The notes: a model not told the origin generated them from the sequence alone. A stretch of DNA of 64,000 nt from an uncultured Gammaproteobacteria bacterium (GCA_964596735.1 CAZQVF010000002.1:82321-146320), one strand, 5' to 3'. Positions 10,221 through 57,194 are shown, numbered from the stretch's first letter. Numbers and translations are program-made.

Positions 10221-10252
10221 ATTGATAAAATTGTATTATTAAAGCTAAAAAA

Positions 10253-11404: not shown

Positions 11405-11410
11405 AAATAT

Positions 11411-13275: not shown

Positions 13276-13300
13276 AATAATTATTTTGATTATAAAAATT

Positions 13301-16300: not shown

Positions 16301-16483
16301 GAAACACCAACCAAAATTATACCGACAAGGATTATCCAACAAGAAACAGGAACAAATGAATCATATATGGAACCCAAACCGATAAGAATGGAAGAAACAA
16401 AACAATTTGAAGGAACGAAGGCCCCTGAAGGTTCTCTTGGAAAGCCGTCTTTATTTGAAAAGGTAAAGGGATTGTTCCAATAG
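13301..16483 (+). CDS. Secreted ~1060-aa protein: signal peptide, long E/K/M-rich helical (coiled-coil-like) region, and a C-terminal Cys-rich region beginning with a DUF333-like module
   Basis: Signal peptide MKKTTKLFILGLVLGLFVLPGIKVMAQE. The central ~750 aa is highly charged. The C-terminal NPASEFCIKKGGKLEIRTNDSGGQFGICHFPNGTECEEWALYKGTC matches the DUF333 (putative hemolysin) pattern, followed by further Cys pairs. Start chosen at MKKTTK rather than the track's 13286. Confidence 0.6.
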   Translation: MKKTTKLFILGLVLGLFVLPGIKVMAQETNEEQPVAVPISEETATGSVEVSDDVLLDEDIMAEDLDVNEQRLLPTSPYYPVKTIWRGFRSIITFDPVKKAELNLRYANEKLIEAKRVAEEKDKPKVVAKALERYKKDLEDVSKIVEKSSEEIRTGAENFAERMIDYSFKQQKLIDGIEKRLTPEQFERVNMVREDGLDYFSHVVTNLVPPEEIKDKITNVIETQAGSEFKDFKNIEVLKIIEEKIPEQAKQAIQQARENTVQRLQEKMTDMVEVERKKFKEYVEDVGGNEIRHLEIINDFAYEQIPEFLHQEMEIAKDKAMERIENKMQEFKREDQKREFLRHLEDGKMEDLRIIKELENNLAPETIEKVLEIKNAALDNFREEFEELEGDEEQGKFLDKMEKLHDVKQLEIFKEIEQVIPQDKKDFFEQMKHKAMDEMRKEMDQARNERDRAMIMDRLVGDMPEHIEIIKGFAPPEMMDEMLRKQADNVREKLLRIDDIEKMQHLRNRIDDTAIREELERRAPDIFQQVDRRIENRFEEISKEKAMEKLEKAKDEINQAGKNFKEFLEKEGIGEYLKNSPAPQHLENAKKHLQEAKTAFDQEKYGHALGQVNAAFNQLNYVWRFVKEFELKHEVAHKRFEEMEETMEDMVGDFLEFEVMEMESEEMPMEDKKALNKMIKQVKEGDMEQAWDEYREKMEQRHVEEKGEIEEVELPYEEMNLSNEQIEKIKEATRILPWEIKQKLQNLPPEMIIEATEQIRGKIRAVPETTTERVRERIEQRIENRGDPTGLANPASEFCIKKGGKLEIRTNDSGGQFGICHFPNGTECEEWALYKGTCLSEDLKKEPLPSQTREDCQHVCKNHGTRSEGWYDSCTGRLIEYAKCAGRTTSGSDYGVPSVSSEDVPSTNLDSSNIACPSWAPPAPDWCKDGQQVSGGIGQNGCKLPPKCLRAIEDLPSPTEPACIQVITYAISGDLCKAFPTPCDVPSAWRKVDKCPEKTLETPTKIIPTRIIQQETGTNESYMEPKPIRMEETKQFEGTKAPEGSLGKPSLFEKVKGLFQ

Positions 16484-27777: not shown

Positions 27778-27802
27778 AAACAAGGCCCGACAGGGCCTTG
27801 AT
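27778..27802 (-). terminator. Hairpin terminator downstream of greA
   Basis: AAGGCCCgacaGGGCCTT: 7-bp stem, followed on the minus strand by GUUUUAUUUUCU. Confidence 0.6.
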
Positions 27803-28408: not shown

Positions 28409-30322
28409 TTAATCCTTTGGAAAATAGGCTTGAAAAACTTCTAAAGCAGCGGGGACGGCAATCTTGTCTCCTCCACCACCATTTTCAACTAAAACCGTTA
28501 CCACAATTTCTGGATTTTCATAAGGAGCAAACCCAGTAAACCAGGCATGACTTCTTTTGTTTCCTCCTACCTGGGCCGTACCAGTTTTCCCTGCCACCAT
28601 TACTGATAAGCTATTTAATCTTCGGGCGCTTCCTTGAGTAACTGCCGCCCGTAAACCTTGTTTAATTAAATCTAAATAATCAGAATCTATAAAATCTTTT
28701 CTAATAATTTTAGGTAAAATTTGTTTTTTCTTCCCTGTTTCAGAGCTACTATATTCTTTAACCAAATGGGGTTGAAAAAGAATTCCTCCATTAGCAATGG
28801 CGGCTGTATAATTAGCCACTTGAATTGGAGTAACTAAAATATCTCCCTGACCAATTGATATGTGATAAGTATCACCAATATACCAGGGTTCCTCTTTTAC
28901 TTCTTCTTTCCATTCTGGGGTAGCTAAAAGACCTTTGTTTTCGCCAGGAATATCAATTCCTGTTTCTTCGGTTAAACCAAAAAGTTGGGCATAGTGATTG
29001 ATTCTTTCCGGTCCTAATCCTTTAATTTCACCATAGCCTCCTCCCACGTAATAAAAAAATGTGTTAACTGATTCAGCTAAAGCTTTAACTAAGTCAGTCC
29101 AACCATGTCCATTTTCTTTCCAATCAGCAAAAAACCATTGCTTGACCTTAATTCCGCCCTTGGAGAAAAATACAGTATTTTTATTAATAATTTCGTCCAT
29201 TAGGCCAGCCGCGGCAATAACAGGCTTAATCACTGAGCCACAAGGATATTCTCCGGCAATGGCTCGAAAAAACAAGGGCTTACTAGGGTCAGTTAAATAA
29301 GCTTCTGACCCTCCTTTAATAAATAGGTTATTATCATAACTTGGCCAAGAAAAAATAGATAAAATCTCTCCGTTTTTTGGATTCATAACAATAATCGTCC
29401 CTGCTTTACTTTTGCTTGCCTTTAAGTATTTTTGTAAAATTTGACTTACTTTTTCTTGTAAATTTGCATCTAAAGAAAGGATTAAATCTTGTCCTGTCTG
29501 TGGTTCTTGCTGGGAAATAATTCTTTCTTCTTTCCCCAATGAATTAACTTCTATTCTTTTTTGCCCGTCTTTGCCTTTTAATAAATTTTCATAAGATACT
29601 TCTAAACCTGTTTTACCAATGAAATCTGTTATTAAGTAATCTGGATACTCTATTAGCTCTTCTGGGCTTAGTTTTCCAACATAACCCAGGACATGAGCCA
29701 AAGTCTGCCCTCTTAAATATTCTCTTTCTGCCTCTATTCTTAGATTTATACCTGATAAATTCTTTAATTTTGTTTCTAATTTAACAGCCGTTTGATAATC
29801 AAGGTCTCTTAATAATTCTACCTCTTGATAAGAATGAGGTAATAAATTTTGAAAAATCTCCCTGATTTGGGCTTCTGTTTCTCTATTCACATTTAAGATT
29901 AAAAAAACCTGTTCTAATGTTTTTTCTTTTCCTTCTCTGTCTTTAGGTAAATCCCCGGGAATAACTACTAAAGAAAATCCGGGCCTGTTTTTGATCAAAT
30001 GTTGAAGACTTCGATCATAAATTAACCCCCGATCAGCTTTAATCGGCAAGATGCGGACCCTGTTTCCCTCAGCAATGTCTCTGTATTCTTGGCCATGAAC
30101 AACTTGTAGCCAAAAAAGGCGGCCCAGCATTAACAGGGTTAATAGAGAAATAAAAAGAAATAAAAAATAAATTCTTCCTCTTTTTATGGGCGTAGCCAAG
30201 GCGGCTGTTTCTGGCTCGCTTTCTGGTAAATAATTACCTTCGTCAAGATGACGAGAAAAATTTGGTATTTTTTTATCTTTAAAACCCTTGCCTGATGATT
30301 GGATATTAAAAGGATCACTCAT
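28409..30322 (-). CDS. mrdA: Penicillin-binding protein 2 (elongasome transpeptidase)
   Basis: N-terminal TM, PBP dimerisation domain, and transpeptidase motifs SVIKP, SxN, KTGT. It overlaps mreD by ATGA. Confidence 0.85.
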   Translation of the reverse strand: MSDPFNIQSSGKGFKDKKIPNFSRHLDEGNYLPESEPETAALATPIKRGRIYFLFLFISLLTLLMLGRLFWLQVVHGQEYRDIAEGNRVRILPIKADRGLIYDRSLQHLIKNRPGFSLVVIPGDLPKDREGKEKTLEQVFLILNVNRETEAQIREIFQNLLPHSYQEVELLRDLDYQTAVKLETKLKNLSGINLRIEAEREYLRGQTLAHVLGYVGKLSPEELIEYPDYLITDFIGKTGLEVSYENLLKGKDGQKRIEVNSLGKEERIISQQEPQTGQDLILSLDANLQEKVSQILQKYLKASKSKAGTIIVMNPKNGEILSIFSWPSYDNNLFIKGGSEAYLTDPSKPLFFRAIAGEYPCGSVIKPVIAAAGLMDEIINKNTVFFSKGGIKVKQWFFADWKENGHGWTDLVKALAESVNTFFYYVGGGYGEIKGLGPERINHYAQLFGLTEETGIDIPGENKGLLATPEWKEEVKEEPWYIGDTYHISIGQGDILVTPIQVANYTAAIANGGILFQPHLVKEYSSSETGKKKQILPKIIRKDFIDSDYLDLIKQGLRAAVTQGSARRLNSLSVMVAGKTGTAQVGGNKRSHAWFTGFAPYENPEIVVTVLVENGGGGDKIAVPAALEVFQAYFPKD

Positions 30323-30852
30323 ATGTTTATTCCTTTATACTTCTTATACTTTAATCCTATTAGTCTGATTAAGAAAGAAAAAATAGTGATTAATAAAGCA
30401 TTGAAAAAAATTGATTGAAATAAGGCAGACCAATAAAATTTATCAAAACTAATTCTTAAATCTGATAAATTTATTAAGTAAAAAAATTGGCTGATCAACA
30501 GAATAAAAACATGATAAACCAAGCCGGCGACTAAGCCAAAGACAAAAATACTTAATGACTTATTTAAATTAAATTTAGATAGTAAAAATTTGTAACAAAA
30601 ATAGCTAGTCAGAATTAGACTTAAAACAAACAAACCCGGGGGAAAAATAGAATAAACATCTAATAAAATGCCCCCCCAAATACTTATTAAAAAAACATGT
30701 TTAGTTATTTTGTTTTTCCCTGACTCAATTAAAAAAAGTATTGCCAGAATAAAAATCAAAGAAACCTCTGTAGGAATTAACGGGGAAGAAAGTTCCAAAG
30801 CAGCCAAAATTAGGACAAAAAAAACAAGGCAAATGGATTTTAAAACTGACAT
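30319..30852 (-). CDS. mreD: Rod shape-determining protein MreD (putative)
   Basis: Small polytopic membrane protein between mreC and PBP2. Start set at the Met abutting the mreC stop. Confidence 0.55.
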   Translation of the reverse strand: MSVLKSICLVFFVLILAALELSSPLIPTEVSLIFILAILFLIESGKNKITKHVFLISIWGGILLDVYSIFPPGLFVLSLILTSYFCYKFLLSKFNLNKSLSIFVFGLVAGLVYHVFILLISQFFYLINLSDLRISFDKFYWSALFQSIFFNALLITIFSFLIRLIGLKYKKYKGINI

Positions 30853-30853
30853 A

Positions 30854-31618
30854 TTATTGAGGTAAAATAATTGAAACAATTTTTGGCTTTGGCGTTAAAA
30901 GAGGTTTAACAATGACTTCTTGAAAAATATCGTTTGGTTTTTTATTAATTTCCATTACCTGACCAATAACTATTCCCCAACGAATATTGTCTTCTAGGCC
31001 AGTTGTAATCACGGCGTCTCCAATGTTTATTCTCTTATCTAAAGGAACATATTTCATTTTTAAAGTTAATCCGTACTCTCCTTGAATAACACCAGAAACG
31101 ATTCCAGGATTATTAATATCACTTTCTAAGGGCAATTGAGTTAAAGGATCATAAGTAATAATGTCAGCCGCTAAAGCTAGGTGTTGATCAAAAATTGGTT
31201 GAGAATAAGAAACAGAATCTTTAACTTTGACAACCACCCCGATTAAAACACCATTTTGGTCAACTACGGCCAAGCCTGGTTCTATCCCTTTATCTGCTCC
31301 TTGATCTAATAAAAGCCATTTAAATCCGGCGACTGATTTTTGGCCAATTACTCTAGCCAAAACACTGTTATCTTTTGTTTTGTCCAAAAAATTAAAATGA
31401 TCCCTTATAACTTCGTTTTCAACTTGAATCTTTTTTAATTTAACATTTTCTATTTTAAGTTGACGATAAAACTCATCCCCAGATAAAGATGATGCTTCTA
31501 ATTGATAAAAAGATTTTTGGATTGGCTGTAAAATTTTAAAAAAAACATTTTCTCCTTTAAGGAGAAAAATAAATATCAATAATAAAACAATAATAATAAA
31601 AACAACAAGTTTTCTCAT
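30854..31618 (-). CDS. mreC: Rod shape-determining protein MreC
   Basis: N-terminal TM, coiled coil, and beta-rich C-terminal domain (VVDQNGVLIGVV..., ITTGLED). Confidence 0.75.
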   Translation of the reverse strand: MRKLVVFIIIVLLLIFIFLLKGENVFFKILQPIQKSFYQLEASSLSGDEFYRQLKIENVKLKKIQVENEVIRDHFNFLDKTKDNSVLARVIGQKSVAGFKWLLLDQGADKGIEPGLAVVDQNGVLIGVVVKVKDSVSYSQPIFDQHLALAADIITYDPLTQLPLESDINNPGIVSGVIQGEYGLTLKMKYVPLDKRINIGDAVITTGLEDNIRWGIVIGQVMEINKKPNDIFQEVIVKPLLTPKPKIVSIILPQ

Positions 31619-31646: not shown

Positions 31647-33728
31647 TTATCTGCTTGGTACAGAAGTTACATTGCTATCAATAATTGGTCCGTCTGGATA
31701 AACTTCATCCGCTAAAATCTCAATAACGTCATCCCATTTAAAGCCTAATGCTTCAAAAACCTGGCCTGAAGCAAAGGCTCTTTTCTTGCCAGATTCAACT
31801 AAATAAACACCTGGTTGGTCAACATACTTAATCAAAGTTCCGTCTAAACGCCCGGTAACTGGATCTCCGTCAATATAGGTTTCATTGTAAGGAATTTCAA
31901 TAACGTCTTCCCATTTAAAACCTATTCTTTCAAAGACCTCACCTGAAGCAAAGGCTCTTTTCTTACCAGATTCAATTAAATAAACGCCTGGTTGATCAGG
32001 ATATTTAATTAAAGTTCCATCTACCCTACCCTGAGGTTGAACAACAAATTGGAAACTGTTAATCATCAGCTCAAAACTTGTTTTAAAGTTAGCTTCTTTT
32101 TCAGTTCCTACATTATAAGACAAGATATAAATGCGACTATCTTTCTGAATATAAAGGGTTAAGTGTTCTGGATTCCAAACTGCTTCTTGATTGTTAACAA
32201 TAGTTGAATATAACAAGGATTGATCAATGCTTGGAGATTGTCTTAAATACCATTCAACTGGCTTTAGTCCTTCGGGATTATTTTCCACAGTGATGCTAAA
32301 AAATTCACCTGTATTTGTAATAACTAATACTTCTTGATTATTAGTTTCTGGAATAGCTCTTGCCAGCCAAGATGAAGGATAAAAGAAACTGTATGAATAA
32401 GTTGGATTAGTGTAAACATTGATTAGCCCTGAAGCAGCTAACTGAGCCCCTTCTGCTTGTTGATTAGGATCTGTAAGATTAAGAATTTCTTGGCCATCAG
32501 GGGTGGTATCAGTGTCTGAGTCAGGATTATTTACTTCTGTGTGATAAAGTGTCTCTTCAACATCTGTTAAACCATCATTGTCTGTATCTAGGCTAGATTG
32601 AACTTCTGGGGCTATCTGGAACATTTCTACTTTAGGGGTAAGTTTTTCTTTGGCTACAATAATAGCTAGGGTTTTCGCTGGCATAAGATCAAGAGCAATC
32701 GTTAATGTATTTGTTTCTTCATTAAGAGAAGAAGACAGGGGTGTCCAAAGGTTGTCTTTAAAATATCCCAGGACTAAATCTTTTTCCCATGCATCTTCAA
32801 CTAAAGCTTGATGATAAAACATTTTTAAGTCTGCTGTTTTTTTAAAAATTATATCAAGTGTCTCTTCAGTTTCAACCTCAGTTTCAATTTTTTGAGAAGA
32901 AACTTGATAAAGACCTCCTATTATCTTATAATCTCCTTCTGATTCTTCACTAGCTAACTCTCCACTAATCTCTAATTTAATATCTGTCTCTATCGCCCCT
33001 TCTGGTAAATAAATTTCTGCCCAAGAGATAATAACATCTGTTTCAGTGTTTTTTAGCTCATTCTTTAGGGTTTGTACTGGTGATAAAACCGGCTCTTCAA
33101 TAATTTCTGTCTTTTCTTCTTCAACTGGTTCAACAGGCTCTTCTAATTCTGTAGCTGTTGGCTCTGTAATTGGTTCAGGGGCAACCGATTTTTGGGAATA
33201 ATTCTGAGCCCAAAAGTAAAAACCAAGTCCTCCGGCAATAATTAAGATAACAACAACTAATAAAATAATTAAAAGCTTACCCTTCTTTTTACCTGATTTT
33301 GGTTTTTTGGGTTTAGATTTTCTAAATTTATCTGCCATCACTCGAACTGTTTCCTTGTCTGAGTCCCCTCCTTCATCTGCCTCTTGAATAATCTCCTTTT
33401 TGGCTAATTCTGGAGTAGCAAATTTAGTGGCTGACGGTTGAGGTGGTGGCGGGCTTGGTTGTTCAGGTGTTGGAGGCTCTGTTGAAGGTGTTGGGGCAAC
33501 TGGTTCTTGTTGTGGCAATTCAGCCGCAGGTTCAGGAGTTGTCTCAGGGACAGATGTATCTGTGGCTGGCTCTGAAGGTGCGGGAGCAGCTGTCGGTTCA
33601 GTTACTGGTTCAGTTGCCGGAACGGCTGGCTGGGCTGCTCCTGGTTCAGCTGGAGGAACCGGCGAAGAGCCCTGGGTAGCTGGCTCCTGCGGTTGCTGTG
33701 ATGATTGTTGTTGTTTTTCATCAAACAT
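31647..33728 (-). CDS. Membrane-anchored extracellular protein: Pro/Ala/Glu-rich cytoplasmic N-terminus, TM anchor, acidic region with DxDxDG-type Ca-binding motifs, two C-terminal ~60-aa tandem repeats
   Basis: The N-terminal 100 aa are PA-rich and GC-rich in DNA. TM LLIILLVVVILIIAGGLGFYF. Motifs DTDNDGLTDVEE and DSDTDTTPDGQE. Repeats GR(V/L)DGTLIKYxDQPGVYL(I/V)ESGKKRAFASGxVFExxGFKW(E/D)DVIEI x2; the DNA repeat spans 31700-32040. Confidence 0.6.
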   Translation of the reverse strand: MFDEKQQQSSQQPQEPATQGSSPVPPAEPGAAQPAVPATEPVTEPTAAPAPSEPATDTSVPETTPEPAAELPQQEPVAPTPSTEPPTPEQPSPPPPQPSATKFATPELAKKEIIQEADEGGDSDKETVRVMADKFRKSKPKKPKSGKKKGKLLIILLVVVILIIAGGLGFYFWAQNYSQKSVAPEPITEPTATELEEPVEPVEEEKTEIIEEPVLSPVQTLKNELKNTETDVIISWAEIYLPEGAIETDIKLEISGELASEESEGDYKIIGGLYQVSSQKIETEVETEETLDIIFKKTADLKMFYHQALVEDAWEKDLVLGYFKDNLWTPLSSSLNEETNTLTIALDLMPAKTLAIIVAKEKLTPKVEMFQIAPEVQSSLDTDNDGLTDVEETLYHTEVNNPDSDTDTTPDGQEILNLTDPNQQAEGAQLAASGLINVYTNPTYSYSFFYPSSWLARAIPETNNQEVLVITNTGEFFSITVENNPEGLKPVEWYLRQSPSIDQSLLYSTIVNNQEAVWNPEHLTLYIQKDSRIYILSYNVGTEKEANFKTSFELMINSFQFVVQPQGRVDGTLIKYPDQPGVYLIESGKKRAFASGEVFERIGFKWEDVIEIPYNETYIDGDPVTGRLDGTLIKYVDQPGVYLVESGKKRAFASGQVFEALGFKWDDVIEILADEVYPDGPIIDSNVTSVPSR

Positions 33729-33751
33729 AAAAATTAATTTTAATTGTTATT

Positions 33752-34339
33752 TTATTTTATTTTTTGGATTTCTTTTTGTAAATCCAAAAGTTTTGCATTT
33801 GGATTAGGATCTTTAGGGTCACCCCCTTTTCTTACTTCTTCCCCGTCTAAAATTCCATCTTCATCTGTATCAGATTTTAATGGGTCGGTTAAATAAATTT
33901 TAACTTCTTCTTTATCAAAAAGGCCGTCTTGATCACTATCTAAACTATTTATCTGGGTCCCTAATTCGCGTTCTTCTGCATCTGTTAAACCGTCATGATC
34001 TGAGTCTAATGTTTCCTCGTCGTCCCCTGATTCTTCTAAATCTACTGGAGTTTCTGTTAATTCTTCTTGTCCTGCTTGTTCAACTGGTGTCTCAACCCTG
34101 CCTTCTTCTGAAGATTTTCCTTTTATTTTAGAAAAAACAAACCAGAGAGCAATGATAAGGATAACAATAACAATGATGATTATTATTAAACGAATTACCT
34201 TGCTTATATTAACCCTTTTTTTAAACTTTGGTTCTACTTTTTTTGTTTCAATAGATTGCCCCTCTACCTGAGCCACTGTAGAAGATGGTGTTTTTTCAAC
34301 TTTATCAAAAATGTCTTCAGTTTTATTTTCTTCTGGCAT
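33752..34339 (-). CDS. Membrane-anchored protein with three thrombospondin-type-3-like Ca-binding repeats
   Basis: TM LIIIIIVIVILIIALWFVF, then DSDHDGLTDAEE, DSDQDGLFDKEE, DTDEDGILDGEE. Confidence 0.6.
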   Translation of the reverse strand: MPEENKTEDIFDKVEKTPSSTVAQVEGQSIETKKVEPKFKKRVNISKVIRLIIIIIVIVILIIALWFVFSKIKGKSSEEGRVETPVEQAGQEELTETPVDLEESGDDEETLDSDHDGLTDAEERELGTQINSLDSDQDGLFDKEEVKIYLTDPLKSDTDEDGILDGEEVRKGGDPKDPNPNAKLLDLQKEIQKIK

Positions 34340-34366: not shown

Positions 34367-37300
34367 TTACTGATCAAGATCTCCACAATTACGTTTGAGG
34401 CCACTTCCCGGACCACAATAATAGTCTTTATTATGAACCAAGAAATCATTGGCAAAGTAGTTATGTAGTTTATCAACTTCTAGATTATAAACTGTTTGCT
34501 GATCTATTGCCTTTTTAATTTTAATAATTTTAACAAATTCTAATCGCCCATTATTATTTATTTTCCCAACCTCATCCCAAATGTTTAAATCTTTAACTTT
34601 TAAATATCCTTTTCTAGTATAGATAGGATGAATATTTGTTACCTTTAAAACTGAATAGTCTAAAAGTGTCATTATATAATAATCTTGTTTTTCATGTTCA
34701 AATGTTTGCATTACTTTGACTTTTTGGATTCTATTTTTTTCTAAATCATACCCATTAATTATGTCTCCGACTTTAATGTCCTCAATGTTTTTAAATCCAT
34801 TCTCAGTTGTAATTAAAGTCCCGGCAATAAAACATCCTGCTTCGTCTCCACAACAAAATTGATCATCATCACAACTGCTACCACAAGTGGCAACGCAATC
34901 ACTACAATAAGTCGAATCAGTAGGACAACCATCTTCTGAAGGACCCCATTGACAATCATCTTCACAATAGCGACATTGACCCGCTCCTACATAGTCTCCC
35001 TCACCAGGTGTACATGCGTTTTTTGGAGGAAGATCACATATTCCACTTTGACACTCGCCACATGCCTCCATACACTCTGTTCCATCCGATACAGATTGAT
35101 CAGCTGGACAGCTGCTAGAAGAACCTGTGCAGGTTTCTGATATATCACACTCAGAGTCTGCTGGGCGACAAACATATTCTGAAGACCGATAATAACAACC
35201 ATCACAACAAGCTCCCGTAGTACAGTCGCAGGGAGGAACACAAGCACCATTATTACAAACTTCCCCAGTAGGACAGCAAACACCAGCACAACAAGTTCCT
35301 GTATCACAACCTAAATAAGGTGGCGGCCCTGTGTCTGTAACTGGATCACAATCTCCAGTACCATCACACTGATAACAAGTTGTACATTGAGCAGTAGATT
35401 GCCCACAACTAGCTGTTAATATATTGCCGGCATCAGCATTAATTGTCACGCCAAAAGCTCCTGAATTATCTGTTTTACAAACACCATTATAAGCACAGCT
35501 ACGATAATATATTGTTCCTGAACAAGCCCCAGAAGTACAAGAATTATCTATATCACAATAATAAGTAGATGAAACTGATATTTCTGAACCGTTAACGCAA
35601 ACCTTGTTTTCTGCCACAATTGAACCATTGTTACCAACATCATAAGAACAAGCATGTCCAGCAGAACATCTTAATTCATCTCTTGTTTTAAAACAATCTG
35701 TATTACAGTAATTCCAAGAAGAAAAATCGCAAAGTGTCGTTCCGTTTGGCGAACAACTACCGGTTAAAGTTTTGCCAGTATTAGGATAAACTGTTTGTTG
35801 GTAAGAACCTGTCGCGTCTGCTTTACAAGCTCCACTACCATCACAACCACGATAATATCTATAACCAACACAAGCACCGTTTGTACAATCATCAACAATC
35901 GCCCCGCAATAATTACTAGTGCTACGATAAGCCAGGGTGCAATCAGGATATAATACACAATTTGCCTGAGCCATGATTGGTTGTAAATGACCGCCCGTGT
36001 AGTCACCTACACCCCGGCAAGCCCCACTACCATTACATGAGCGATACCATCTAGTCCCTGAGCAACTATTATTACTGCAATTATTTTCAGGTGATCCACA
36101 ATAATTTGAGGCTGAAACAGAAGTGATTTCACCTGCTCCTGTACAAACAGAACCAGAAGGAATATTTTCTGTGCCGCCACTAGGATCACAAGACCCACTA
36201 GAACCACATAGCCCACTACCTCCCCCTCTAACACAATCACTGTCGCAAGAAATCCAACCTATTTCACACTGATTAAACGGATCTTGACCTGCTGTCTGAT
36301 TTACACAAGATCCGTTATAACATCTTTTACAAGTATCCTGGCATAATGTTGAGCCAACAGTATCTTGGGTATTATTTGTTTTATTAACACAGGTTCCAGA
36401 ACCTGCCCCATCACAAGTCTGACAAGCTGAACAATTTCTATCTCCAGAAGTATAATAATCTGTACAAAAGCCGCTGCCGTCACAATTACCAGTTAAACAT
36501 CCACTAGTATCATTGCAAATATTTCTGGGATCATTTCCTGCACTGACATTATGACAGGTTCCAGCTGATCCACCAAAACCTTCACCACAATATTCACAAC
36601 TCCCAGTACAAGACATATCACAACAAACTCCGTCAACACAACTTCCTGAATGACAATTTGCGTCACCTGAACAAGCTTCACCATTGGCTTTTAACGCACA
36701 AGAAACTCCACTCCAAGAACAATTATTACATTCAAGAAAACCGGTTGGTTCACTTTCATATCCTAAGCCTTCACATGTTGCTGCTGGAATAAATCCCTCT
36801 GATGGAAAAGTTGTTCCCGGACAATATCCTGATTGAAATGGAGAACAGCAGGTTCCATAACCACTTCCGCAATCACATTGTTCTCCGCATTGGAGTGTTC
36901 CGTCTCCGCAAACAGGTGCTCCTGGTGACTCATAAATATAATTAAAATCCCCTGAAGAATCTGATTGGGTAGTGATAACGTCTTCTTCCCCTTTCCAGAT
37001 GATTCCCCCATTACCATATTCTAAATTGACTGATAAGGTATAATATTCACCTAAACAACCTGATTGATCTGGAGCATAATATTGATAAACATGAGACCCA
37101 TCAGGAATCTCAAAAATTTGAGTACTAGGGTTATAACAAGTATTATCACATTGAGAATCTGGTTCATCAATACAACCAGCACAAGGACCATTAAATTCAT
37201 TAATTGGATCAACTGGTAATGATTCTCCTAAGGCTTGTGATAAAGTATTTGTCCAAGAAGGCCAAAGACTATTGCTTTTACTCAAGACATATGTCCCTGC

Positions 37301-40300
37301 CCCCAAGGTTGGATATTCACCTTGTTCTTGATAATGCTCTTCTAATTCATCTTTTATTTCTTGAAAATTATAAAGTCTTAATAAGTCGTTTTGTAGCTTG
37401 GGTTTATCTTCAAAATAATTATCTAAATTAATATTAAATTCCCAATTATATAATATCTGATTAAATATTTCTATTGTTTTTGGGCTTGCTCCATCATTAT
37501 ATGAAATTAAATAAACATAGGTATAAACTCCCTGATCAGCACAAGTAAGTGTTGCAATATAGCTTCCATGTCCTGTTACACCCCATGCCCCATTATTATA
37601 TCTCATATAACCTCCTCCTGATCCAGTAGTTGTGTAGGACTCAAAGCCACTGTAATTTTGATCATCAACACAATATTGCTGAGCCGTCGCGTTGTCAGGA
37701 TATAAATAATATGAACCATGTTGAGGATTAGAAAAATTATCAGTATCTGAACCCAAATTAGTTGCCCCAACATAAGTAGTTCTTCCTTCTCGCAAAGCAT
37801 AATAGTTATCAATAACAAAATTGCTCGGCTTTCCCGGATTTGGTACATTTTGTTCGTACCAGTTTAAAACACTCAGTCTTTTTGGATTATTAAATACTTT
37901 TAAGCCAATTACGTCTCCTGAATCACCAACGGAAAAAAGAAATTCTTTAATTAAAGGATCACTGCCTTCTATTGATGCCTCTGCTAATTCTGGCAATCTG
38001 TCTGCTTCGGCTTGAGCTAAGTCTCCTCGACAATAACTTAATTTAAATTGAGTATTTGGAGCAAAACCTGGACCAGCTGCATCTTCAAAAGTCCAAGGAA
38101 CTTCGCAAATAAGAACGTTTGCTTCTGTTATTCCTAAAACAGAAATAGCTGGATCAGAACCAACAATCGTGGCCGTAGCCGTAATCTGCACTCGGCCATT
38201 TCTGTCTTGAGCCATAGCTGTTTCATCTTCTGAACTAGATCCTGTTATTGAAACAACTGCTGGGTCTGAAGATTCCCATGACCAGGTCCAGTCATAAACA
38301 TCAGGAATTCCTAATATTTCATTGCCCTGATTATCATATGTGTAAGCAATTAAATTTTCTGATTCGTCCGTGGATGTGAAGTCAATTGTTTTTGGTTCAA
38401 TATCAACTTCTGACAGAGTACAAATTTGATCAGAAGTAGTAAATGTTGAATTATAATCAGCGGCCATACCAACACCATAAATGCTTTCTACTCCGTTTTC
38501 CCCGCCTAGAATTGTTATTTGATATTCTTGATTAGAATCAAGTAATCCGGCATTTATATTTACTATTGTCTTATTTTCATTATAACAAGTAAGTGTTGCA
38601 ATATAGCTTCCATGTCCTGTTACACCCCATGCCCCATTATTATATCTCATATAGCTTCCCAGTGTTAGGGTAGTTGTATAGGAGTCAAAGCCCCTGTAAT
38701 CTTGATCAAGACAATATTGCTGAGCTGTTGCACTACTAGGATATAAATAATATGAACCATGTTGAGGATTGGGAATGTCATTAGTAGGTTCTCGAAAGAT
38801 ATCGTCAACAGCTGAAACATCAACTGTCGAAGTTATATCATCCCATAAAGTAGTCCATTTAAAAAATTTTATTGTGTCTTTTGAAATACTTGATCTGTCC
38901 ATGGGTTGATCAAAAATTGCTTTAATTACTGAATTGCGACAAACATTAGAGCCAGAAGGTTGAAAAGTTTCTACATTAGGATAAATGGCTACCACTAAAT
39001 CAACAGAGTTAGTTACTGGCTCGCCTGCTGATGGAGTAGCCGTAACCTCAATTTCTGTTTCTCCTAAGTCTACGGCCGTAGCCATAGCAGTATAAGTGGG
39101 TGTTTGCGGAGCCACAGTGGCCACACCCGGTTCTGTTGATTCCCATGTCCAAGTAAATGTATCTGGTCTTAAAATCTGACAATCTGGACCAATTGGCAAA
39201 GCAGAATAATCTTTAGTTCCTGATTCAATAATTATCCCAACCGGATCTTGTTCAAATATTTCTATTGCTTGAGCAGAACAAACCTCTGCCTGGTCTTTTG
39301 TTTTAAAATACCAAGTATAGTCGTCATTGGGCGAGTCGTCTTCAATTCCGTCCTTGTTTCCGTCTAACTGATAATTATCAACCGAATCTACAATCCCTGT
39401 TTCCCCACTTTTAAGAGTAACTTGATACCAATAATTTTGATCCAACAGAACACCAGGTGTATAAATAAATCCTTTACTACAGAGTAGTGTATCAATTCTT
39501 TCTGCTGAACTTTCTTCAACCCATTCTCCGTCTACATACCTCATATAGTCATCAATTGGACCAACTGTAGAATAAGTCGCTTTAAAACTAGTATAACCGT
39601 GTTCAAAACAAAATCGATTGGCTGTTGTTATGTCTGGATATAAATGAACTGCATTGTGTTGGGGGTTAACAAATGACTTGTCTGTTTCCACAATTGTTCC
39701 GCTAACATCAGTGGTGCATGATGCTGAATCAAACATTTCATTGCCTAGATTACATTTCTCAACAATGATATTAGTGTTTGATAAATTATCTACTTCCATG
39801 TTAAAACGAGCTGAAATCAATGCATTGCGGCAGGCTTGCGAAGATAAATGACGCGGGGAAGGGGTCTGGATATTGTTTAAGCAAGTACTGTCTTCAAAAA
39901 CCTGGGGAAGATCAAAAGTTTCTGGATCTTCCGGCGGCAAAACTGGGGGGGAAAGCACACTAGTAAATTCTCCTGAACCAGAATACCCCGATATTGTTGC
40001 AGAAATATCAGTGGTCTGCTCCCCTTCTCCTTCCACAGGAGAAACCGTAGTTTCTAATGCTTGGCTAGGACTAACCACAGCGATATTAATGTCATCTGAT
40101 TGCCAGAAAAATTCTGCCACACAAATCGGGTTATTATTAAAATTATATCCCTGGGCTGTATAAATAACACTGTCTTCAAAAGATTCAACAATAGCACTGT
40201 CTGGACTAACAATAATTTCACTAATTTCGCATATATTATCTTCAGGTCCAGTTGCAAATTGCCAAGTATAATCATCCATGGAAACGCCCAGGCTATCGCG

Positions 40301-43300
40301 AATACCTTGTCCATCAAGCCCCCCAATTAATTCTACCTTGTAACCTGTGTATGGATCTAAATCACAATCTATTGGTAATAAATTAACCTGATCATTGTCT
40401 TCATTAATAATTAAATTATAACTTACGTCTTGTTCAGATGATTCCTGCCTTAAATCAACCTGATAAATTCTAATATTAGAATCATGGGGCGACTCAGACC
40501 AATCATTGTCCCACTCTAATCTAATCGTGTGCGTCCCTGCAGTAATATTACCCAATGAAACATTTGAAATCTGGTGACCTAATGTTGCGTCAGCGCAAAA
40601 ATCACCCTTTTCAACATTGTCAACAAACACTTTAACGTGATGTTGAACACCTGGTTCAGAACAAACTCCGTCTTCGCCAAAATCTTTAACATCTGCTGAA
40701 TAATTAGACGTTTCTACATAGATCTGATAATCACCATCTGCGCTAACATTAAAACTATAATCCCACCAATTAACATCACAACGGCCAGTATAAATACCTG
40801 ACTGATCAAGACAACTAGTGTATTGGGTGGTTGTATAATCTATTCCAAGCTTGGATTCAATTAAAGGAGGTAATTTTTTTAATTTAATATTATTTGTATT
40901 TAAAGAGTTTCTGTCCATGTCTTGACTGAAATTAGCCTCAATAGCTGTATTTAAACAAACCGCCTCTCCAGTTGGGCTATTACTGGTTATTGTTGGTTGA
41001 GCATAACAGCATTGATTTGGATCTAAAAATCCGCAGCCTAATCCGTTTCCACATTGGTCATCACTTTCACACCCACAGCAAAGACCACGATCATCACCAG
41101 TACAACTTCCTTGATTAGCCATACATTCCAAAGGAGCCTCGCAAGAATTTGTAATAACATCGCAGCAACATCGGCAAGTGTCTGTTGCTTCATATAGGCA
41201 ATTATAAATGGGGGTCGAACAATTATAAGGAGGGTTGTCAGGACAAAAAGTTGCCTCTTGGCAGGCTTGGCCTGGTCCGCCCGGATGTTGTAAAATATCA
41301 AAAGGCAATTCATTACTCATGCCCTGATCATTTTCAACATATACTAAACCGTCTTCTGATCCCAAAGGAACTAAAGCACTACTAATTTGTTGGTCTGACC
41401 AGGTTTGATAAACAGCTAATTTATTATTATAAAATACCACCTTACTTCCTGCTGACTCTACGCCAAATCTTATTCCTGATAAATCAACTTCTGTTTCATT
41501 TGAATAACCGGCTGACGGATTAATAGAGAAAAGACAGGGCCCATTTGCCTGTTCATTACTGTCTACATAAAACTCAACTAAATTACTAGTTAATTGATCT
41601 CCACCATCATATTCAATAGTCGCCTGGACTTCTGGCCGATCCCCTTGTGAATAAATATCTGGCACTTGTGTAGTTAAATAATTATTGTCAGATCCTTCAA
41701 TTGCTGTTTGAGTAGGTGTTCCATTAAGAATAAAATCTATTTTTATTGGAAGAGCTGGCTGAGTAGCTGTTCCCTCAAAACAGCTGCCATGAAGTGTTAT
41801 ACACTCACCTTTTGAACCTTGAGCCGGTTCTAGATGTGAAATCCAAGGTGAACAAAAGCAGTTTCCCATGGTGGCTGTTGTAAATTCCCAAAAGTCAGAA
41901 AGTAAAGTGCCTTGTTGATCAATGACTAAATCAGTTAAAACTGTTACCTGATAATCTGATTCAGTTTGTAAATTATCATCTGGATCAAAAGTAAAAACTC
42001 TAAAATGATTATTAACTGGGTCACCTGGATCATCTACTCTAAAAACACCACCAATAACTATTTCTTCATAAGGAGGGTCAAATTCACTTGGTCGCATCTC
42101 AAAATCAAAATTATCACCCCCGCCACTAATTTCAAACCTAACTAAGTTGCCATACATCTGGGTGCCAAAAGTCACACTAATATCAGTGTCCGGACAAACC
42201 AAAGTACCGGTTGGGTGCCAAAAACTAATTCCTGGTGCTTGATCATTGGTCTGGAACTCCCACTCAAGTGGTTCGTCCATCTGGTTCATGCAAAGATCTT
42301 CAATGTTGCCAACATGAATCCGATACCAGGTAAATGCTTGTAATAAATTTTCATCTCTTAAAGAAATTCTAAATCCATTACTAATCGCCCCAATTTCAAA
42401 AATCTCTTTAGCCAAAGTTTCAACTATCGTCCCCCCTTGACCATCTAACCTGGCCAGCCAAATATTTGTTTCAATTGGATAATTATTTTCATCAGCTACT
42501 GTGGTCATATCAATTGGCTCAGAAAAACTAGCCTCAATACTTGGTTTTCGGGAAACATTTTGATCTGGATAATCAGGATCACTTTGGTCAAAAATTGGAT
42601 AAGTAGCAACAATCTCTGGTGGGACGGTGTCAAGGGTTTCTCCAGTCATAAAATTCCAAAGAAAATAACTGCCAGCGTCAAGACAATCGCCAGCAGCTAA
42701 ACAGACTTGAAGAAATTCTCCCTGAGTGTCTGAAATTGCTTTGGGAAAATAAGCCTCATAAGAAGTATTAGGATCAAAAAGGTCAGGATGTTTGAAAATA
42801 ATAATATTATTTCTGGTTTGCCAACTACCACTAACCGGGCTTGCCCCGGTTTCAATTCTTAAATCCCCGGCTGTTTCTAAGTCCTCAATTATTAGCCCAT
42901 CAACTGAATGATTAAATATTGGCTGAACAGCAGAACAAAGATAAACATCCTGATGATAATTCTGCTCTAAGCCGCCATGAGTTGTTTCAATTTTTCTAAT
43001 TCTAAAAGCATCTGGAGGCAATGAACAGTCTGGATCAGAAATATTACAACTACCACCAGAATCGCAACGCAAACCCGGGCCACAGCAAAGACCTGGAGTA
43101 CAACCTCCACTGCCTCCTAGGCCTTCTCCAGTCACTCCGCTTAACCGGCCCATAATAAAAGATACTATTGCATAAGCAAAAACAATAATCAAAAGCCCGA
43201 TTAAACCACTAGAAATAATTTTCTTGGCTTTGGTTACCTTGTCAGCAACCCCCCCTGAGGTCATCCAAATAAAACCACCGGCAATCATAATGATGACGGC

Positions 43301-43498
43301 GATTAAACCTAAAAGGCTTAGTCCAATTTTAACAATGTTACCAATTACTTGGGGCAAAGGGGCTTCTCCATAACCGGCTGCTTCGCCAAAATTTATTAAC
43401 TCTTCATTTCCCAGTGTTTGAGCCTGAACCGGTAAAATAAAATAGAATAAACAAAAAACCGTAAACACCAAAAATGTAATTTTAAAAATATTTTTCAT
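34367..43498 (-). CDS. Giant (3043 aa) cell-surface protein: signal peptide + VirB2/TrbC-like pilin double-TM N-terminus, Ig/IPT-like domains, tandem internal repeats, extensive Cys-rich modules, C-terminal Hint/BIL domain
   Basis: Signal peptide MKNIFKITFLVFTVFCLFYFILPVQA. Two TM helices separated by a short loop (IGLSLLGLIAVIIMIAGGFIWM / LIGLLIIVFAYAIVSFIM). An IPT-like CSPWISHLEPAQGSKGECITLHGSCF. Repeated ...YMRYNNGAWGVTGHGSYIATLTC modules. Dense C-x-C arrays. CFIAG...FLVHN at the C-terminus. The antisense ORFs listed in the track over this region are spurious. Confidence 0.85.
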   Translation of the reverse strand: MKNIFKITFLVFTVFCLFYFILPVQAQTLGNEELINFGEAAGYGEAPLPQVIGNIVKIGLSLLGLIAVIIMIAGGFIWMTSGGVADKVTKAKKIISSGLIGLLIIVFAYAIVSFIMGRLSGVTGEGLGGSGGCTPGLCCGPGLRCDSGGSCNISDPDCSLPPDAFRIRKIETTHGGLEQNYHQDVYLCSAVQPIFNHSVDGLIIEDLETAGDLRIETGASPVSGSWQTRNNIIIFKHPDLFDPNTSYEAYFPKAISDTQGEFLQVCLAAGDCLDAGSYFLWNFMTGETLDTVPPEIVATYPIFDQSDPDYPDQNVSRKPSIEASFSEPIDMTTVADENNYPIETNIWLARLDGQGGTIVETLAKEIFEIGAISNGFRISLRDENLLQAFTWYRIHVGNIEDLCMNQMDEPLEWEFQTNDQAPGISFWHPTGTLVCPDTDISVTFGTQMYGNLVRFEISGGGDNFDFEMRPSEFDPPYEEIVIGGVFRVDDPGDPVNNHFRVFTFDPDDNLQTESDYQVTVLTDLVIDQQGTLLSDFWEFTTATMGNCFCSPWISHLEPAQGSKGECITLHGSCFEGTATQPALPIKIDFILNGTPTQTAIEGSDNNYLTTQVPDIYSQGDRPEVQATIEYDGGDQLTSNLVEFYVDSNEQANGPCLFSINPSAGYSNETEVDLSGIRFGVESAGSKVVFYNNKLAVYQTWSDQQISSALVPLGSEDGLVYVENDQGMSNELPFDILQHPGGPGQACQEATFCPDNPPYNCSTPIYNCLYEATDTCRCCCDVITNSCEAPLECMANQGSCTGDDRGLCCGCESDDQCGNGLGCGFLDPNQCCYAQPTITSNSPTGEAVCLNTAIEANFSQDMDRNSLNTNNIKLKKLPPLIESKLGIDYTTTQYTSCLDQSGIYTGRCDVNWWDYSFNVSADGDYQIYVETSNYSADVKDFGEDGVCSEPGVQHHVKVFVDNVEKGDFCADATLGHQISNVSLGNITAGTHTIRLEWDNDWSESPHDSNIRIYQVDLRQESSEQDVSYNLIINEDNDQVNLLPIDCDLDPYTGYKVELIGGLDGQGIRDSLGVSMDDYTWQFATGPEDNICEISEIIVSPDSAIVESFEDSVIYTAQGYNFNNNPICVAEFFWQSDDINIAVVSPSQALETTVSPVEGEGEQTTDISATISGYSGSGEFTSVLSPPVLPPEDPETFDLPQVFEDSTCLNNIQTPSPRHLSSQACRNALISARFNMEVDNLSNTNIIVEKCNLGNEMFDSASCTTDVSGTIVETDKSFVNPQHNAVHLYPDITTANRFCFEHGYTSFKATYSTVGPIDDYMRYVDGEWVEESSAERIDTLLCSKGFIYTPGVLLDQNYWYQVTLKSGETGIVDSVDNYQLDGNKDGIEDDSPNDDYTWYFKTKDQAEVCSAQAIEIFEQDPVGIIIESGTKDYSALPIGPDCQILRPDTFTWTWESTEPGVATVAPQTPTYTAMATAVDLGETEIEVTATPSAGEPVTNSVDLVVAIYPNVETFQPSGSNVCRNSVIKAIFDQPMDRSSISKDTIKFFKWTTLWDDITSTVDVSAVDDIFREPTNDIPNPQHGSYYLYPSSATAQQYCLDQDYRGFDSYTTTLTLGSYMRYNNGAWGVTGHGSYIATLTCYNENKTIVNINAGLLDSNQEYQITILGGENGVESIYGVGMAADYNSTFTTSDQICTLSEVDIEPKTIDFTSTDESENLIAYTYDNQGNEILGIPDVYDWTWSWESSDPAVVSITGSSSEDETAMAQDRNGRVQITATATIVGSDPAISVLGITEANVLICEVPWTFEDAAGPGFAPNTQFKLSYCRGDLAQAEADRLPELAEASIEGSDPLIKEFLFSVGDSGDVIGLKVFNNPKRLSVLNWYEQNVPNPGKPSNFVIDNYYALREGRTTYVGATNLGSDTDNFSNPQHGSYYLYPDNATAQQYCVDDQNYSGFESYTTTGSGGGYMRYNNGAWGVTGHGSYIATLTCADQGVYTYVYLISYNDGASPKTIEIFNQILYNWEFNINLDNYFEDKPKLQNDLLRLYNFQEIKDELEEHYQEQGEYPTLGAGTYVLSKSNSLWPSWTNTLSQALGESLPVDPINEFNGPCAGCIDEPDSQCDNTCYNPSTQIFEIPDGSHVYQYYAPDQSGCLGEYYTLSVNLEYGNGGIIWKGEEDVITTQSDSSGDFNYIYESPGAPVCGDGTLQCGEQCDCGSGYGTCCSPFQSGYCPGTTFPSEGFIPAATCEGLGYESEPTGFLECNNCSWSGVSCALKANGEACSGDANCHSGSCVDGVCCDMSCTGSCEYCGEGFGGSAGTCHNVSAGNDPRNICNDTSGCLTGNCDGSGFCTDYYTSGDRNCSACQTCDGAGSGTCVNKTNNTQDTVGSTLCQDTCKRCYNGSCVNQTAGQDPFNQCEIGWISCDSDCVRGGGSGLCGSSGSCDPSGGTENIPSGSVCTGAGEITSVSASNYCGSPENNCSNNSCSGTRWYRSCNGSGACRGVGDYTGGHLQPIMAQANCVLYPDCTLAYRSTSNYCGAIVDDCTNGACVGYRYYRGCDGSGACKADATGSYQQTVYPNTGKTLTGSCSPNGTTLCDFSSWNYCNTDCFKTRDELRCSAGHACSYDVGNNGSIVAENKVCVNGSEISVSSTYYCDIDNSCTSGACSGTIYYRSCAYNGVCKTDNSGAFGVTINADAGNILTASCGQSTAQCTTCYQCDGTGDCDPVTDTGPPPYLGCDTGTCCAGVCCPTGEVCNNGACVPPCDCTTGACCDGCYYRSSEYVCRPADSECDISETCTGSSSSCPADQSVSDGTECMEACGECQSGICDLPPKNACTPGEGDYVGAGQCRYCEDDCQWGPSEDGCPTDSTYCSDCVATCGSSCDDDQFCCGDEAGCFIAGTLITTENGFKNIEDIKVGDIINGYDLEKNRIQKVKVMQTFEHEKQDYYIMTLLDYSVLKVTNIHPIYTRKGYLKVKDLNIWDEVGKINNNGRLEFVKIIKIKKAIDQQTVYNLEVDKLHNYFANDFLVHNKDYYCGPGSGLKRNCGDLDQ
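34430..34834 (-). other. Hint (intein-like, BIL-type) domain, 135 aa, 20 aa from the C-terminus of the giant protein
   Basis: Starts CFIAGTLITTENG (block A-like) and ends NDFLVHN (block G His-Asn). The +1 residue is Lys, which is not a nucleophile. There is no endonuclease insert. Confidence 0.7.
37530..37760. repeat. Internal repeat A within the giant gene
   Basis: A 70-nt stretch identical to 38586-38655 (acaagtaagtgttgcaatatagcttccatgtcctgttacaccccatgccccattattatatctcatata), with flanks ~80-85% identical. Confidence 0.8.
38575..38800. repeat. Internal repeat B within the giant gene (paralogous to 37530-37760)
   Basis: See repeat A; a third, more diverged copy lies near 39540-39700. Confidence 0.8.
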
Positions 43499-43523: not shown

Positions 43524-43982
43524 TTAAAGTTGGGACAATTGTTCTTGAACAATTTTTTTAACTTTATCTCCTTGTACTTGACCTTTGGCTTCGGCCATAA
43601 CCTTACCCATAACCTTGCCAAAATCCTGCGGTCCAGCTGGATTTACAGCCTGGATCGCTTTAATAACTAGCTCTTTTACTTTATCATCTGAAAGTTGTTC
43701 TGGCAAGTATTGATCTAAAATAGCTAATTCTTTTTCTTCTTTCTCTGCTAATTCTTTTCTTTCCCCTTTTTTATACATTTCCGCTGCTTCTCGCCTTTTC
43801 TTTGCTTCTTTTTGGACAACTTCAATAACAATCTCTTCAGTCATTTCTTTTTTCTGAGGCTTTAATTCAATCTCTTTATTATGCAAAGCAGTTTTTAAGC
43901 CTCTTAAGACGCTTAATTTTTCTGCTTGTTTTTGCTGTAAAGCCTGCTTAAAGTCTTTTTCAATACGTTCTAATAAAGCCAT
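43524..43982 (-). CDS. GatB/YqeY-domain protein
   Basis: Typical YqeY fold sequence (LKTALHNKEIE..., EAKGQ..GKV..I) adjacent to rpsU, a conserved gene pair. Confidence 0.75.
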   Translation of the reverse strand: MALLERIEKDFKQALQQKQAEKLSVLRGLKTALHNKEIELKPQKKEMTEEIVIEVVQKEAKKRREAAEMYKKGERKELAEKEEKELAILDQYLPEQLSDDKVKELVIKAIQAVNPAGPQDFGKVMGKVMAEAKGQVQGDKVKKIVQEQLSQL

Positions 43983-56507: not shown

Positions 56508-56644
56508 GTTTAAGAGGTTAACAAATAAATCCTTCTTGTCAAGAATATCTGCTTTAGGGTTATCCCCCGCCCTGGTTGACAAAAAATACATCAAAGATTA
56601 TATTTAAAATAGCTCACAACTAAAATAGGAAGGGGGTGAGAAAA

Positions 56645-57076: not shown

Positions 57077-57097
57077 CACTTATAAGTGTTTCGGATA

Positions 57098-57170: not shown

Positions 57171-57194
57171 AAATTATTTACGTAAAGATAAAAC

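Follow-up and report, generated by a model that had tools for sequence, protein, structure and literature searches.

According to our analysis, two adjacent minus-strand genes in a 64,000-nucleotide stretch of DNA (GCA_964596735.1 CAZQVF010000002.1:82321-146320, hereafter the window; positions are counted from its first letter) encode membrane-anchored proteins with thrombospondin type 3 (TSP3)-like repeats, here called A and B, which form a conserved set with the giant protein encoded immediately upstream. With a confidence that falls a little short of even, we favor the interpretation that A, B, and the giant protein constitute an ancient envelope module specific to Patescibacteria, in which a calcium-stiffened tether between membrane and wall partners the giant surface protein. 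The window is recorded as DNA of an uncultured Gammaproteobacteria bacterium; its closest relatives are metagenome-assembled Patescibacteria. Among the relatives' records (L008 to L087), many share this title and one reads "Vicinamibacterales"; gene content and the names of the relatives suggest that these are mislabels. The coordinates and strand of A and B agree with those given in a preliminary description of this DNA. The three genes are as follows.

34367-43498, minus strand: giant protein, 3,043 amino acids (aa), from Pfam, sequence features, and positional conservation
33752-34339, minus strand: protein A, 195 aa, with a cytoplasmic N-terminus, one transmembrane helix, an acidic linker, and three TSP3 repeats
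31647-33728, minus strand: protein B, 693 aa, a multi-domain single-pass membrane protein

Conservation of the gene block in related genomes

Related loci were gathered by lookups of five homologues and by a scan of one genome per species, and they were analyzed with phmmer. The species scan yielded 248 genomes with a relative, from which 80 loci were kept, and the set comprised 84 loci after duplicate removal, sampled from Parcubacteria and ABY1-type groups. The relevant genes lie on one strand in 84 of 84 loci, and a giant open reading frame (ORF) precedes the block on the same strand in each of the 69 loci with enough upstream sequence. In 60 of the 69, phmmer recognizes this ORF; in the other nine, the ORF (785 to 3,060 aa) has diverged too far for recognition. 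Counting A-like genes in the interval from the giant gene to the B-like gene gave none in 9 loci, one in 48, and two in 27 (at least one in 75 of the 84). The block that the preliminary description had delimited is therefore conserved in the relatives, which answers the synteny check it had proposed.

The same comparison does not bear out a cell-shape module in which the mre genes are a conserved part. Downstream of the block we found (ybeY)-(dgkA)-ftsA-ftsZ in 73 of the 84 loci and mreC-mreD-PBP2, the arrangement of the window, in only 6, all of them among the window's closest relatives; the remaining contexts are ybeY alone (2 loci) and a contig end (3 loci). In 11 related loci the giant gene is directly preceded by a YqeY match. 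One locus, L013, has the beta-sandwich and the C-terminal repeats of protein B described below and retains ybeY-dgkA-ftsA-ftsZ, which implies that these domains were gained before the rearrangement. At the rearrangement in the window's clade, yqeY, the giant gene, A, and B were kept together while the downstream partner changed, and it is chiefly on this that we base the association of the giant protein with A and B. Judged by gene order, the link between the giant gene, A, and B is ancient, and the link to the mre genes is secondary, the product of a recent rearrangement.

Gene order of this kind could also arise if A and B were generic calcium-binding envelope proteins without a functional tie to the giant protein or to the mre and fts genes, the order being simply inherited in small, slowly rearranging genomes. 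Such an explanation would account for the functionally unrelated yqeY, ybeY, dgkA, and greA in the run, and it is in keeping with our promoter and terminator scans, which were no different from those of shuffled sequence. However, the linkage holds across lineages whose B cores are only about 30% identical, it survived the sole rearrangement observed, and A-like genes, whatever their number (zero to two), are invariably placed after the giant gene and before B. We consider mere inheritance of the order very unlikely.

Membrane topology and TSP3 repeats of proteins A and B

The features relevant to the topology of the two proteins and to their TSP3 repeats are the following.

34124-34189, minus strand: transmembrane signal-anchor of protein A (aa 51 to 72), peak hydropathy 3.74
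33204-33275, minus strand: transmembrane signal-anchor of protein B (aa 152 to 175), peak hydropathy 3.23
33806-34006, minus strand: TSP3 block of protein A, Pfam TSP3_bac
33971-34006, minus strand: TSP3 motif 1 of protein A, DSDHDGLTDAEE (aa 112 to 123)
33905-33940, minus strand: TSP3 motif 2 of protein A, DSDQDGLFDKEE (aa 134 to 145)
33836-33871, minus strand: TSP3 motif 3 of protein A, DTDEDGILDGEE (aa 157 to 168)
32487-32588, minus strand: TSP3 pair of protein B, DTDNDGLTDVEE and NNPDSDTDTTPDGQE, with invariant alignment columns

Each protein contains one strong hydrophobic segment, located at aa 51 to 69 in A, where the net charge is +6 just before it and -12 just after it, and at aa 152 to 170 in B, where the corresponding charges are +11 and -10. 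The charge flip across both helices indicates a signal-anchored topology with the N-terminus inside and the C-terminus outside, so that A and B are, by prediction, single-pass membrane proteins which remain anchored and are not released. Cleavable signal peptides were rejected on account of N-regions of 50 and 150 aa, hydrophobic segments of 22 to 24 aa, and the lack of a cleavage-type motif. Of the earlier proposals, a cytoplasmic N-terminus followed by one transmembrane anchor is thus well founded, whereas the term "secreted" needs correcting to signal-anchored.

All four Asp-rich motifs quoted in the preliminary description were located, three in A and one in B (aa 381 to 392). The assignment of these motifs to TSP3-like repeats is backed by a profile search, in which protein A passed the threshold of Pfam TSP3_bac (PF18884) over two stretches with 49 bits (cut-off 25; E value 5e-13). 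The TSP3 segment of B reached 19.2 bits against the same cut-off of 25, and several B homologues carry a precomputed PF18884 match. Throughout the related loci, the motif D.[DN].[DN]G..[DN]..E is present in 98 of 98 A-like proteins, in one to four copies, and in 89 of 89 B-like proteins, in one or two copies, as opposed to 5 occurrences per 746,307 residues in the other ORFs of the 84 loci. Furthermore, the Asp, Gly, Leu, and Glu positions of the B unit and of a second, degenerate unit are invariant among 57 full-length and 45 core homologues; alignments A1 and A5 show the invariant columns D/D/D/L/E/E, D, and D within the B TSP3 pair. Since the motif is specific to A-like and B-like proteins across the 84 loci, compositional bias is ruled out as its origin, and the low-complexity artifact which had been named as the finding that would count against the TSP3 assignment can be dismissed. 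The Asp loops of A and B would accordingly be expected, from their sequence, to bind calcium.

Domain architecture of protein B

Protein B consists, in this order, of a cytoplasmic head, a Lys-rich juxtamembrane stretch, the transmembrane helix, an acidic linker, a beta-sandwich, the TSP3 pair, a PsbP-fold domain, and two C-terminal repeats. The parts not yet listed, apart from the repeats, are given here.

33414-33728, minus strand: head of protein B (aa 1 to 105), rich in Pro, Ala, Thr, Glu, and Gln, encoded by a GC-rich patch
33318-33347, minus strand: juxtamembrane motif VRVMADKFRK in the Lys-rich stretch, a variant of the family motif h-x-h-M-P-x-K-F
32640-33074, minus strand: beta-sandwich (aa ~219 to 363), all-beta in an AlphaFold2 (AF2) model, predicted local distance difference test (pLDDT) score mostly >90
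32040-32423, minus strand: PsbP-fold domain (aa ~436 to 563), from Pfam PsbP_2 and Foldseek

An AF2 model of aa 214 to 693, built on 57 homologues, had a mean pLDDT of 89.9 and a predicted TM-score (pTM) of 0.53. The PsbP domain passed the threshold of Pfam PsbP_2 (PF18933) with 29 to 33.4 bits (cut-off 27), and in a Foldseek search of the PDB it matched CyanoP (2xb3) with an E value of 8.8e-6, a probability of 1.0, and a TM-score (target) of 0.54. The sequence of protein B found no match among PDB sequences with phmmer, and the beta-sandwich gave no Pfam or PDB match. We do not regard B as a photosystem II PsbP, which scored 14.9 bits against a cut-off of 60 in NCBIfam (PSII_PsbP), and the scanned ORFs of the window contain no photosystem genes. 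Two further names were discarded. FliL, used by JGI for some homologues, reached 21.7 bits against a cut-off of 179 and covers the Lys-rich stretch and the transmembrane helix only; the PknB-PASTA and IcmG annotations derive from matches restricted to that same region.

A protein identical to B, P0001, lies on a contig of 266 kb. We identified 92 homologues of protein B; all those listed with a taxon name are Patescibacteria-type metagenome-assembled genomes, and total lengths range from 436 to 855 aa. The B core defines a wider family of at least 954 clusters (E value ≤ 1e-10), whose taxon-named members are again all Patescibacteria and whose core identity across classes is 28 to 47%; the B-like members are all annotated as "hypothetical" or misnamed FliL. 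Since the best-listed B-like members are mostly about 300 to 360 aa long, the ancestral B is deemed to have consisted of the tail, the transmembrane helix, TSP3, and the PsbP-like domain. The beta-sandwich, which phmmer detects in closer homologues only (L001 to L005 and L008 to L014), and the C-terminal repeats are additions confined to the window's wider clade.

The head of protein B is read as disordered and cytoplasmic. As the preliminary description stated, it is Pro/Ala-rich (28% Pro, 14% Ala) and encoded by a GC-rich patch, the GC fraction being 0.57 at positions 33400 to 33699 and 0.34 in the whole window; given the Pro/Ala composition, the patch is a consequence of codon use and not foreign DNA. 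A plus-strand ORF at 33562-33807 (81 aa, GTG start) lies mostly within this patch and reaches the start of A; as a gene it was rejected, being most likely a by-product of composition.

A short cytoplasmic peptide precedes the Lys-rich stretch and transmembrane helix of B-like proteins (L001 to L087), for example, IYVMPEKFRK, IHVMPSKFHK, or IYTMPEKFL. Of 83 B-like proteins, 32 contain the pattern [MLIV]P.[KR][FLYW], with its fixed Pro, and of 67 A-like proteins none does; the copy in the window's B, where Ala replaces this Pro, does not match it. The peptide also figures in the main competing explanation, according to which B-like and perhaps A-like proteins are Patescibacteria-specific accessory subunits of the wall-synthesis machines, divisome or elongasome. 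The juxtamembrane peptide would then contact FtsA, FtsZ, or partners of MreC-PBP2, and the ectodomain would organize wall synthesis in the place of FtsQ/DivIB or RodZ. The position of the block is consistent with such a role, since it adjoins either ftsA-ftsZ or mreC-mreD-PBP2 in most loci, always on the same strand. Moreover, FtsQ, RodZ, and MreC share the bitopic topology with the N-terminus inside, the C-terminal repeats of B are also present on wall-remodeling enzymes, and no FtsQ/POTRA gene was called beside ftsA in the loci inspected. However, no POTRA, FtsQ, or RodZ (HTH, DUF4115, RodZ_C) domain was matched in B by Pfam or NCBIfam, nor was such a fold; ybeY and dgkA, which are unrelated to division, part B from ftsA in most loci; the motif is found in less than 40% of the members; and it is with the giant gene, rather than with fts or mre, that linkage is tightest and most stable. 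We therefore think that a role in division or elongation is unlikely, although it ranks first among the alternatives to a tether.

A broader version of this idea would be that the run of giant, TSP3, and PsbP-TSP3 genes upstream of ftsA-ftsZ, or of mreCD-PBP2 in the window, represents an undescribed system of envelope morphogenesis in several Patescibacteria lineages. In such a system B may connect the cytoskeleton with both the wall and the giant surface layer via the MPxKF peptide, replacing the bitopic scaffolds of divisome or elongasome, none of which was seen beside ftsA in the loci inspected. We hold this to be quite improbable.

The C-terminal repeats of protein B

31857-32033, minus strand: C-terminal repeat 1 (aa 566 to 624), EccB-repeat type
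31680-31856, minus strand: C-terminal repeat 2 (aa 625 to 683), 73% identical to repeat 1

The two tandem copies of about 60 aa noted previously at the C-terminus of B are present, but "nearly identical" overstates their likeness, as 43 of 59 residues are shared (73%) and DNA identity is 75%. A recent tandem duplication was rejected, given this DNA identity of only 75% and 12 synonymous codons that differ. In a scan of 1.84 billion representative proteins, the repeat family amounted to 2,551 clusters at an E value ≤ 1e-3 and 970 at ≤ 1e-10, with arrays of up to 17 units and a period of about 59 to 63 aa; long carriers include P0093 (1,423 aa) and P0094 (3,254 aa). Among 89 carriers scanned we detected 8 with Amidase_2, 6 with SpoIID, 4 with PG_binding_1, 3 with Peptidase_M23, 1 with Glucosaminidase, and 8 with Peptidase_S8 domains, and DD-carboxypeptidases are also found among the carriers.

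At E values of up to 10 the repeat had no Pfam model of its own and did not match LysM, SH3, SLH, SPOR, PG_binding_1, CW_binding_1/2, or PASTA. The comparison with wall-binding families that had been suggested thus gave an association with wall enzymes and no match to the described wall-binding modules, which merely co-occur with the repeat in other proteins. Instead, the Pfam EccB model (PF05108) matches single repeat units in some carriers, above the cut-off in P0232 (E value 7.5e-11, 41.8 bits), and the coordinates of these matches coincide with the repeat units. The window's protein B, or its repeats alone, gave no PF05108 match, and the central core domain of EccB was not found in it. In the AF2 model of the repeat pair (pLDDT 90.3), each unit is formed by a three-stranded sheet, a helix, and a fourth strand, and the ten best matches to PDB folds were all EccB. 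The repeat profile found only chance matches among PDB sequences (Pizza, TAF14). A search of BFVD with the repeat pair returned mostly uncharacterized proteins, the best two from actinophages, with marginal matches to lysins; the two-repeat fold is common to proteins of unknown function of Rhodococcus phage Weasels2 and Streptomyces phage LukeCage. In the literature, the EccB1 repeats have been likened to the wall-binding phage protein PlyCB (PMC4769845). Taking together the homology to EccB and the fusions to hydrolases, the 59-aa repeat is an EccB-type module which is probably wall binding.

The giant protein

The giant protein is composed of a signal peptide, a VirB2-like double-transmembrane anchor, Big_5 Ig-like domains, a Cys-rich body (5.4% Cys), and a C-terminal HINT domain. 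Its N-terminal module (aa 1 to 117; 43148-43498, minus strand) comprises the signal peptide and the VirB2/T4SS_pilin-like transmembrane pair, followed by a Gly-rich linker; the VirB2/T4SS_pilin-like match scored 25.6 bits, just under the Pfam cut-off of 26.6. The module recurs on the positional counterparts in many loci, whereas the remainder diverges, in some beyond the reach of phmmer. Long exact matches 347 residues apart (aa 1576 to 1632 versus 1923 to 1980) point to an internal duplication at aa ~1576 to 1980 (37559-38773, minus strand). With regard to calcium, Pfam and motif scans of the giant protein revealed no TSP3-type motif and no calcium-domain match, and consequently the notion of a contiguous block of calcium-binding proteins is tenable for A and B and not for the giant protein.

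The HINT domain (aa 2889 to 3023; 34430-34834, minus strand; Pfam PT-HINT, E value 5e-13) starts with Cys (CFIAGT), contains a TNIH block, and ends in VHN and then Lys. It is trailed by just 20 residues, without a toxin domain and without a splice-competent +1 residue. Such a domain could cleave itself off, or it could join the C-terminus newly formed on the giant protein to another molecule. The listings for the giant genes of L001, L003, L005, and L006 contain no HINT-family match.

Ig-like, TIG, laminin-G, and Lcl_C domains occur among the giant proteins, which differ strongly from one lineage to another, as would be expected of proteins that face a host. This raises a third option, namely, that the trio is the host-attachment apparatus of an epibiotic cell, with the giant protein as the adhesin and A and B as cofactors of calcium-dependent adhesion or cohesion resembling the TSP3 proteins of Myxococcus. 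In other predatory bacteria, TSP3 and dockerin repeats of giant proteins have been tied to attachment (10.1101/2023.11.21.568195), and protein A has weak NCBIfam matches to MtsD and CglD through its TSP3 region. These matches fall far under the cut-offs, though (22 versus 800 bits and 21.5 versus 400 bits, respectively), A and B are short and membrane proximal, and the conservation of the B core while the giant protein diverges better suits a housekeeping anchor than a host-specific ligand. Host attachment is hence, in our estimation, an improbable role for the trio.

A proposed calcium-stiffened tether between membrane and wall

For the tether that we favor, the following arrangement can be envisaged. 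The transmembrane helices, for which the topology signals give direct support, would hold A and B in the membrane, and calcium bound by the TSP3 units, whose strict conservation is likewise observed, would rigidify the acidic stalk. The PsbP-fold domain of B would offer a protein-docking surface, most probably for A or for the giant protein. Within the clade of the window, B would have gained the beta-sandwich and two EccB-type repeats, the latter gripping peptidoglycan, as their directly supported homology to EccB and fusion to hydrolases may suggest. B would thereby become a membrane-wall tether by which the giant protein, itself anchored via its VirB2-like hairpin, is positioned or kept in the envelope. 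The shared strand and order of the genes are facts of the loci; the binding of calcium and of peptidoglycan, a physical interaction with the giant protein, and co-transcription are inferences.

Several points weigh against this arrangement. Most B-like proteins (300 to 360 aa) lack the wall-binding repeats, which rules out wall tethering as the family's ancestral role. The fold matches of the repeats to EccB are weak (E values of 5e-3 to 0.2), and binding of peptidoglycan has so far not been demonstrated for any EccB-type repeat (PMC4769845). The TSP3 units of A and B contain no cysteines and thus lack the intra-repeat cysteines reported for the one structurally studied bacterial TSP3. In the AF2 model of B the domains are reliable, whereas their relative orientation is uncertain at a pTM of 0.53. 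The conserved run includes the unrelated housekeeping genes yqeY, ybeY, and dgkA, and its order could be inherited, which makes the neighborhood alone weak evidence of shared function. Finally, the roles proposed for members of the family derive from sequences and models.

Genomic context and transcription signals of the window

On the minus strand, the run in the window reads parA, parB, yqeY, the giant gene, A, B, mreC, a putative mreD, a PBP2-type transpeptidase gene, greA, lysS, serS, and recJ. GC content of the window is 34%. The features outside the block are as follows.

43524-43982, minus strand: yqeY, Pfam YqeY (E value 2.6e-42), with a 25-bp gap to the giant gene
30854-31618, minus strand: mreC, Pfam MreC (E value 4.5e-24), 28 bp downstream of protein B
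30319-30879, minus strand: putative mreD, about five hydrophobic segments, assigned by position and without a Pfam match
28409-30322, minus strand: PBP2-type transpeptidase (mrdA), Pfam PBP_dimer and Transpeptidase
27781-27800, minus strand: terminator-like hairpin after greA, with an 8-bp stem containing 6 GC pairs and then a T-run

The intergenic gaps from yqeY through mreC measure 23 to 28 bp, and mreC overlaps mreD, as does mreD the PBP2 gene; the co-orientation of A and B with the giant gene and with mreC-mreD-PBP2 is therefore as earlier described. Counterparts of the putative mreD lie between mreC and PBP2 in L001 to L004 and L008 to L010. The start listed for it, a TTG, gives a 26-base overlap with mreC, and translation may in truth begin at codon 10, an internal ATG. 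The hairpin after greA is the sole strong terminator-like site on the minus strand, and the terminator scan found no such site in the intergenic gaps upstream of it. With a common strand, short spacing, and no internal terminator, the block has the appearance of an operon with mreC-mreD-mrdA, and co-transcription of the giant gene, A, B, and the mre genes is plausible on these grounds.

No phmmer match to ftsA, ftsZ, ybeY, or dgkA was found in the window, and no MreB-family match among its Pfam-scanned ORFs, a scan from which the ORFs at 1-13210 and 56636-63196 were left out. Two large plus-strand ORFs of the window lie at 13286-16483 (1,065 aa, with DUF5667 and DUF333 domains) and at 5892-10220 (1,442 aa). 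In one related locus (L005, 13993-18537), intein and LAGLIDADG domains interrupt the gene for NrdD, the anaerobic ribonucleotide reductase, which is situated downstream of ftsZ.

Significance of the module

The domains described here are all of known kind and the proteins are not strange in themselves. Three things appear to be new: a module of three genes that spans the lineage, its habitual location ahead of division genes, and a very large EccB-type repeat family without a model of its own. Our literature search, whose coverage was incomplete and whose outcome is provisional, found no description of this module in Patescibacteria. These ultra-small bacteria account for a large share of bacterial diversity, and how they build their envelope and hold giant proteins is almost unknown. 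The module can be found by sequence patterns, with at least 954 clusters for the B core and relatives in at least 248 species-level genomes. The EccB repeat, for its part, turns out to be one member of a large free-standing family (2,551 clusters), typically fused to peptidoglycan hydrolases, which is relevant to the question of what EccB does in type VII secretion. If the binding of calcium and of the wall were confirmed, the module would illustrate how a single-membrane cell attaches a surface protein of 3,000 residues to its wall.

Comparison with known systems

Myxococcus CglD and MtsD (NCBIfam NF033765 and NF047639) are TSP3-bearing surface proteins which are implicated in calcium-dependent adhesion and cohesion. 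Unlike A and B, they are large, are lipoprotein anchored or secreted, and contain other domains, and their matches with A are confined to the repeat region. The PsbP, CyanoP, and PsbP_2 proteins (PF18933; PDB 2xb3 and 3hlz, BT_1490) have the same alpha/beta sandwich fold as the domain in B. The latter, however, is not a photosystem subunit, has only 10 to 17% identity to them, and is fused to a transmembrane anchor and TSP3 units.

EccB (PF05108; PDB 3x3n, 5cyu, and 7np7) belongs to the core of the mycobacterial ESX/type VII secretion system and, like B, is a single-pass protein with its N-terminus inside. Its extracytoplasmic repeats of about 55 aa, made of a beta-sheet plus a helix, are of the same family as the repeats of B. 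The two differ in that B lacks the central core domain and has two tandem repeats, whereas EccB has four around the core. None of the type VII secretion genes EccC, EccD, MycP, and WXG100 is present among the window ORFs scanned.

The bacterial OmpA-family TSP3 proteins (Pfam PF18884) place their TSP3 repeats between a membrane anchor and a peptidoglycan-binding domain. The same succession of membrane anchor, calcium-binding TSP3, and wall module is proposed here, and the consensus DxDxDG..D..E is the same. The anchor is an outer membrane beta-barrel in the OmpA family, in contrast to the single transmembrane helix of B with its N-terminus inside, in a Patescibacteria envelope; the candidate for wall binding is the EccB-type repeat in B instead of the OmpA_C domain; and B, unlike the OmpA family, inserts the PsbP-fold domain and has cysteine-free TSP3 units. 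With these differences, the OmpA-family order of anchor, TSP3, and peptidoglycan-binding domain is the closest analogy for the tether proposed here.

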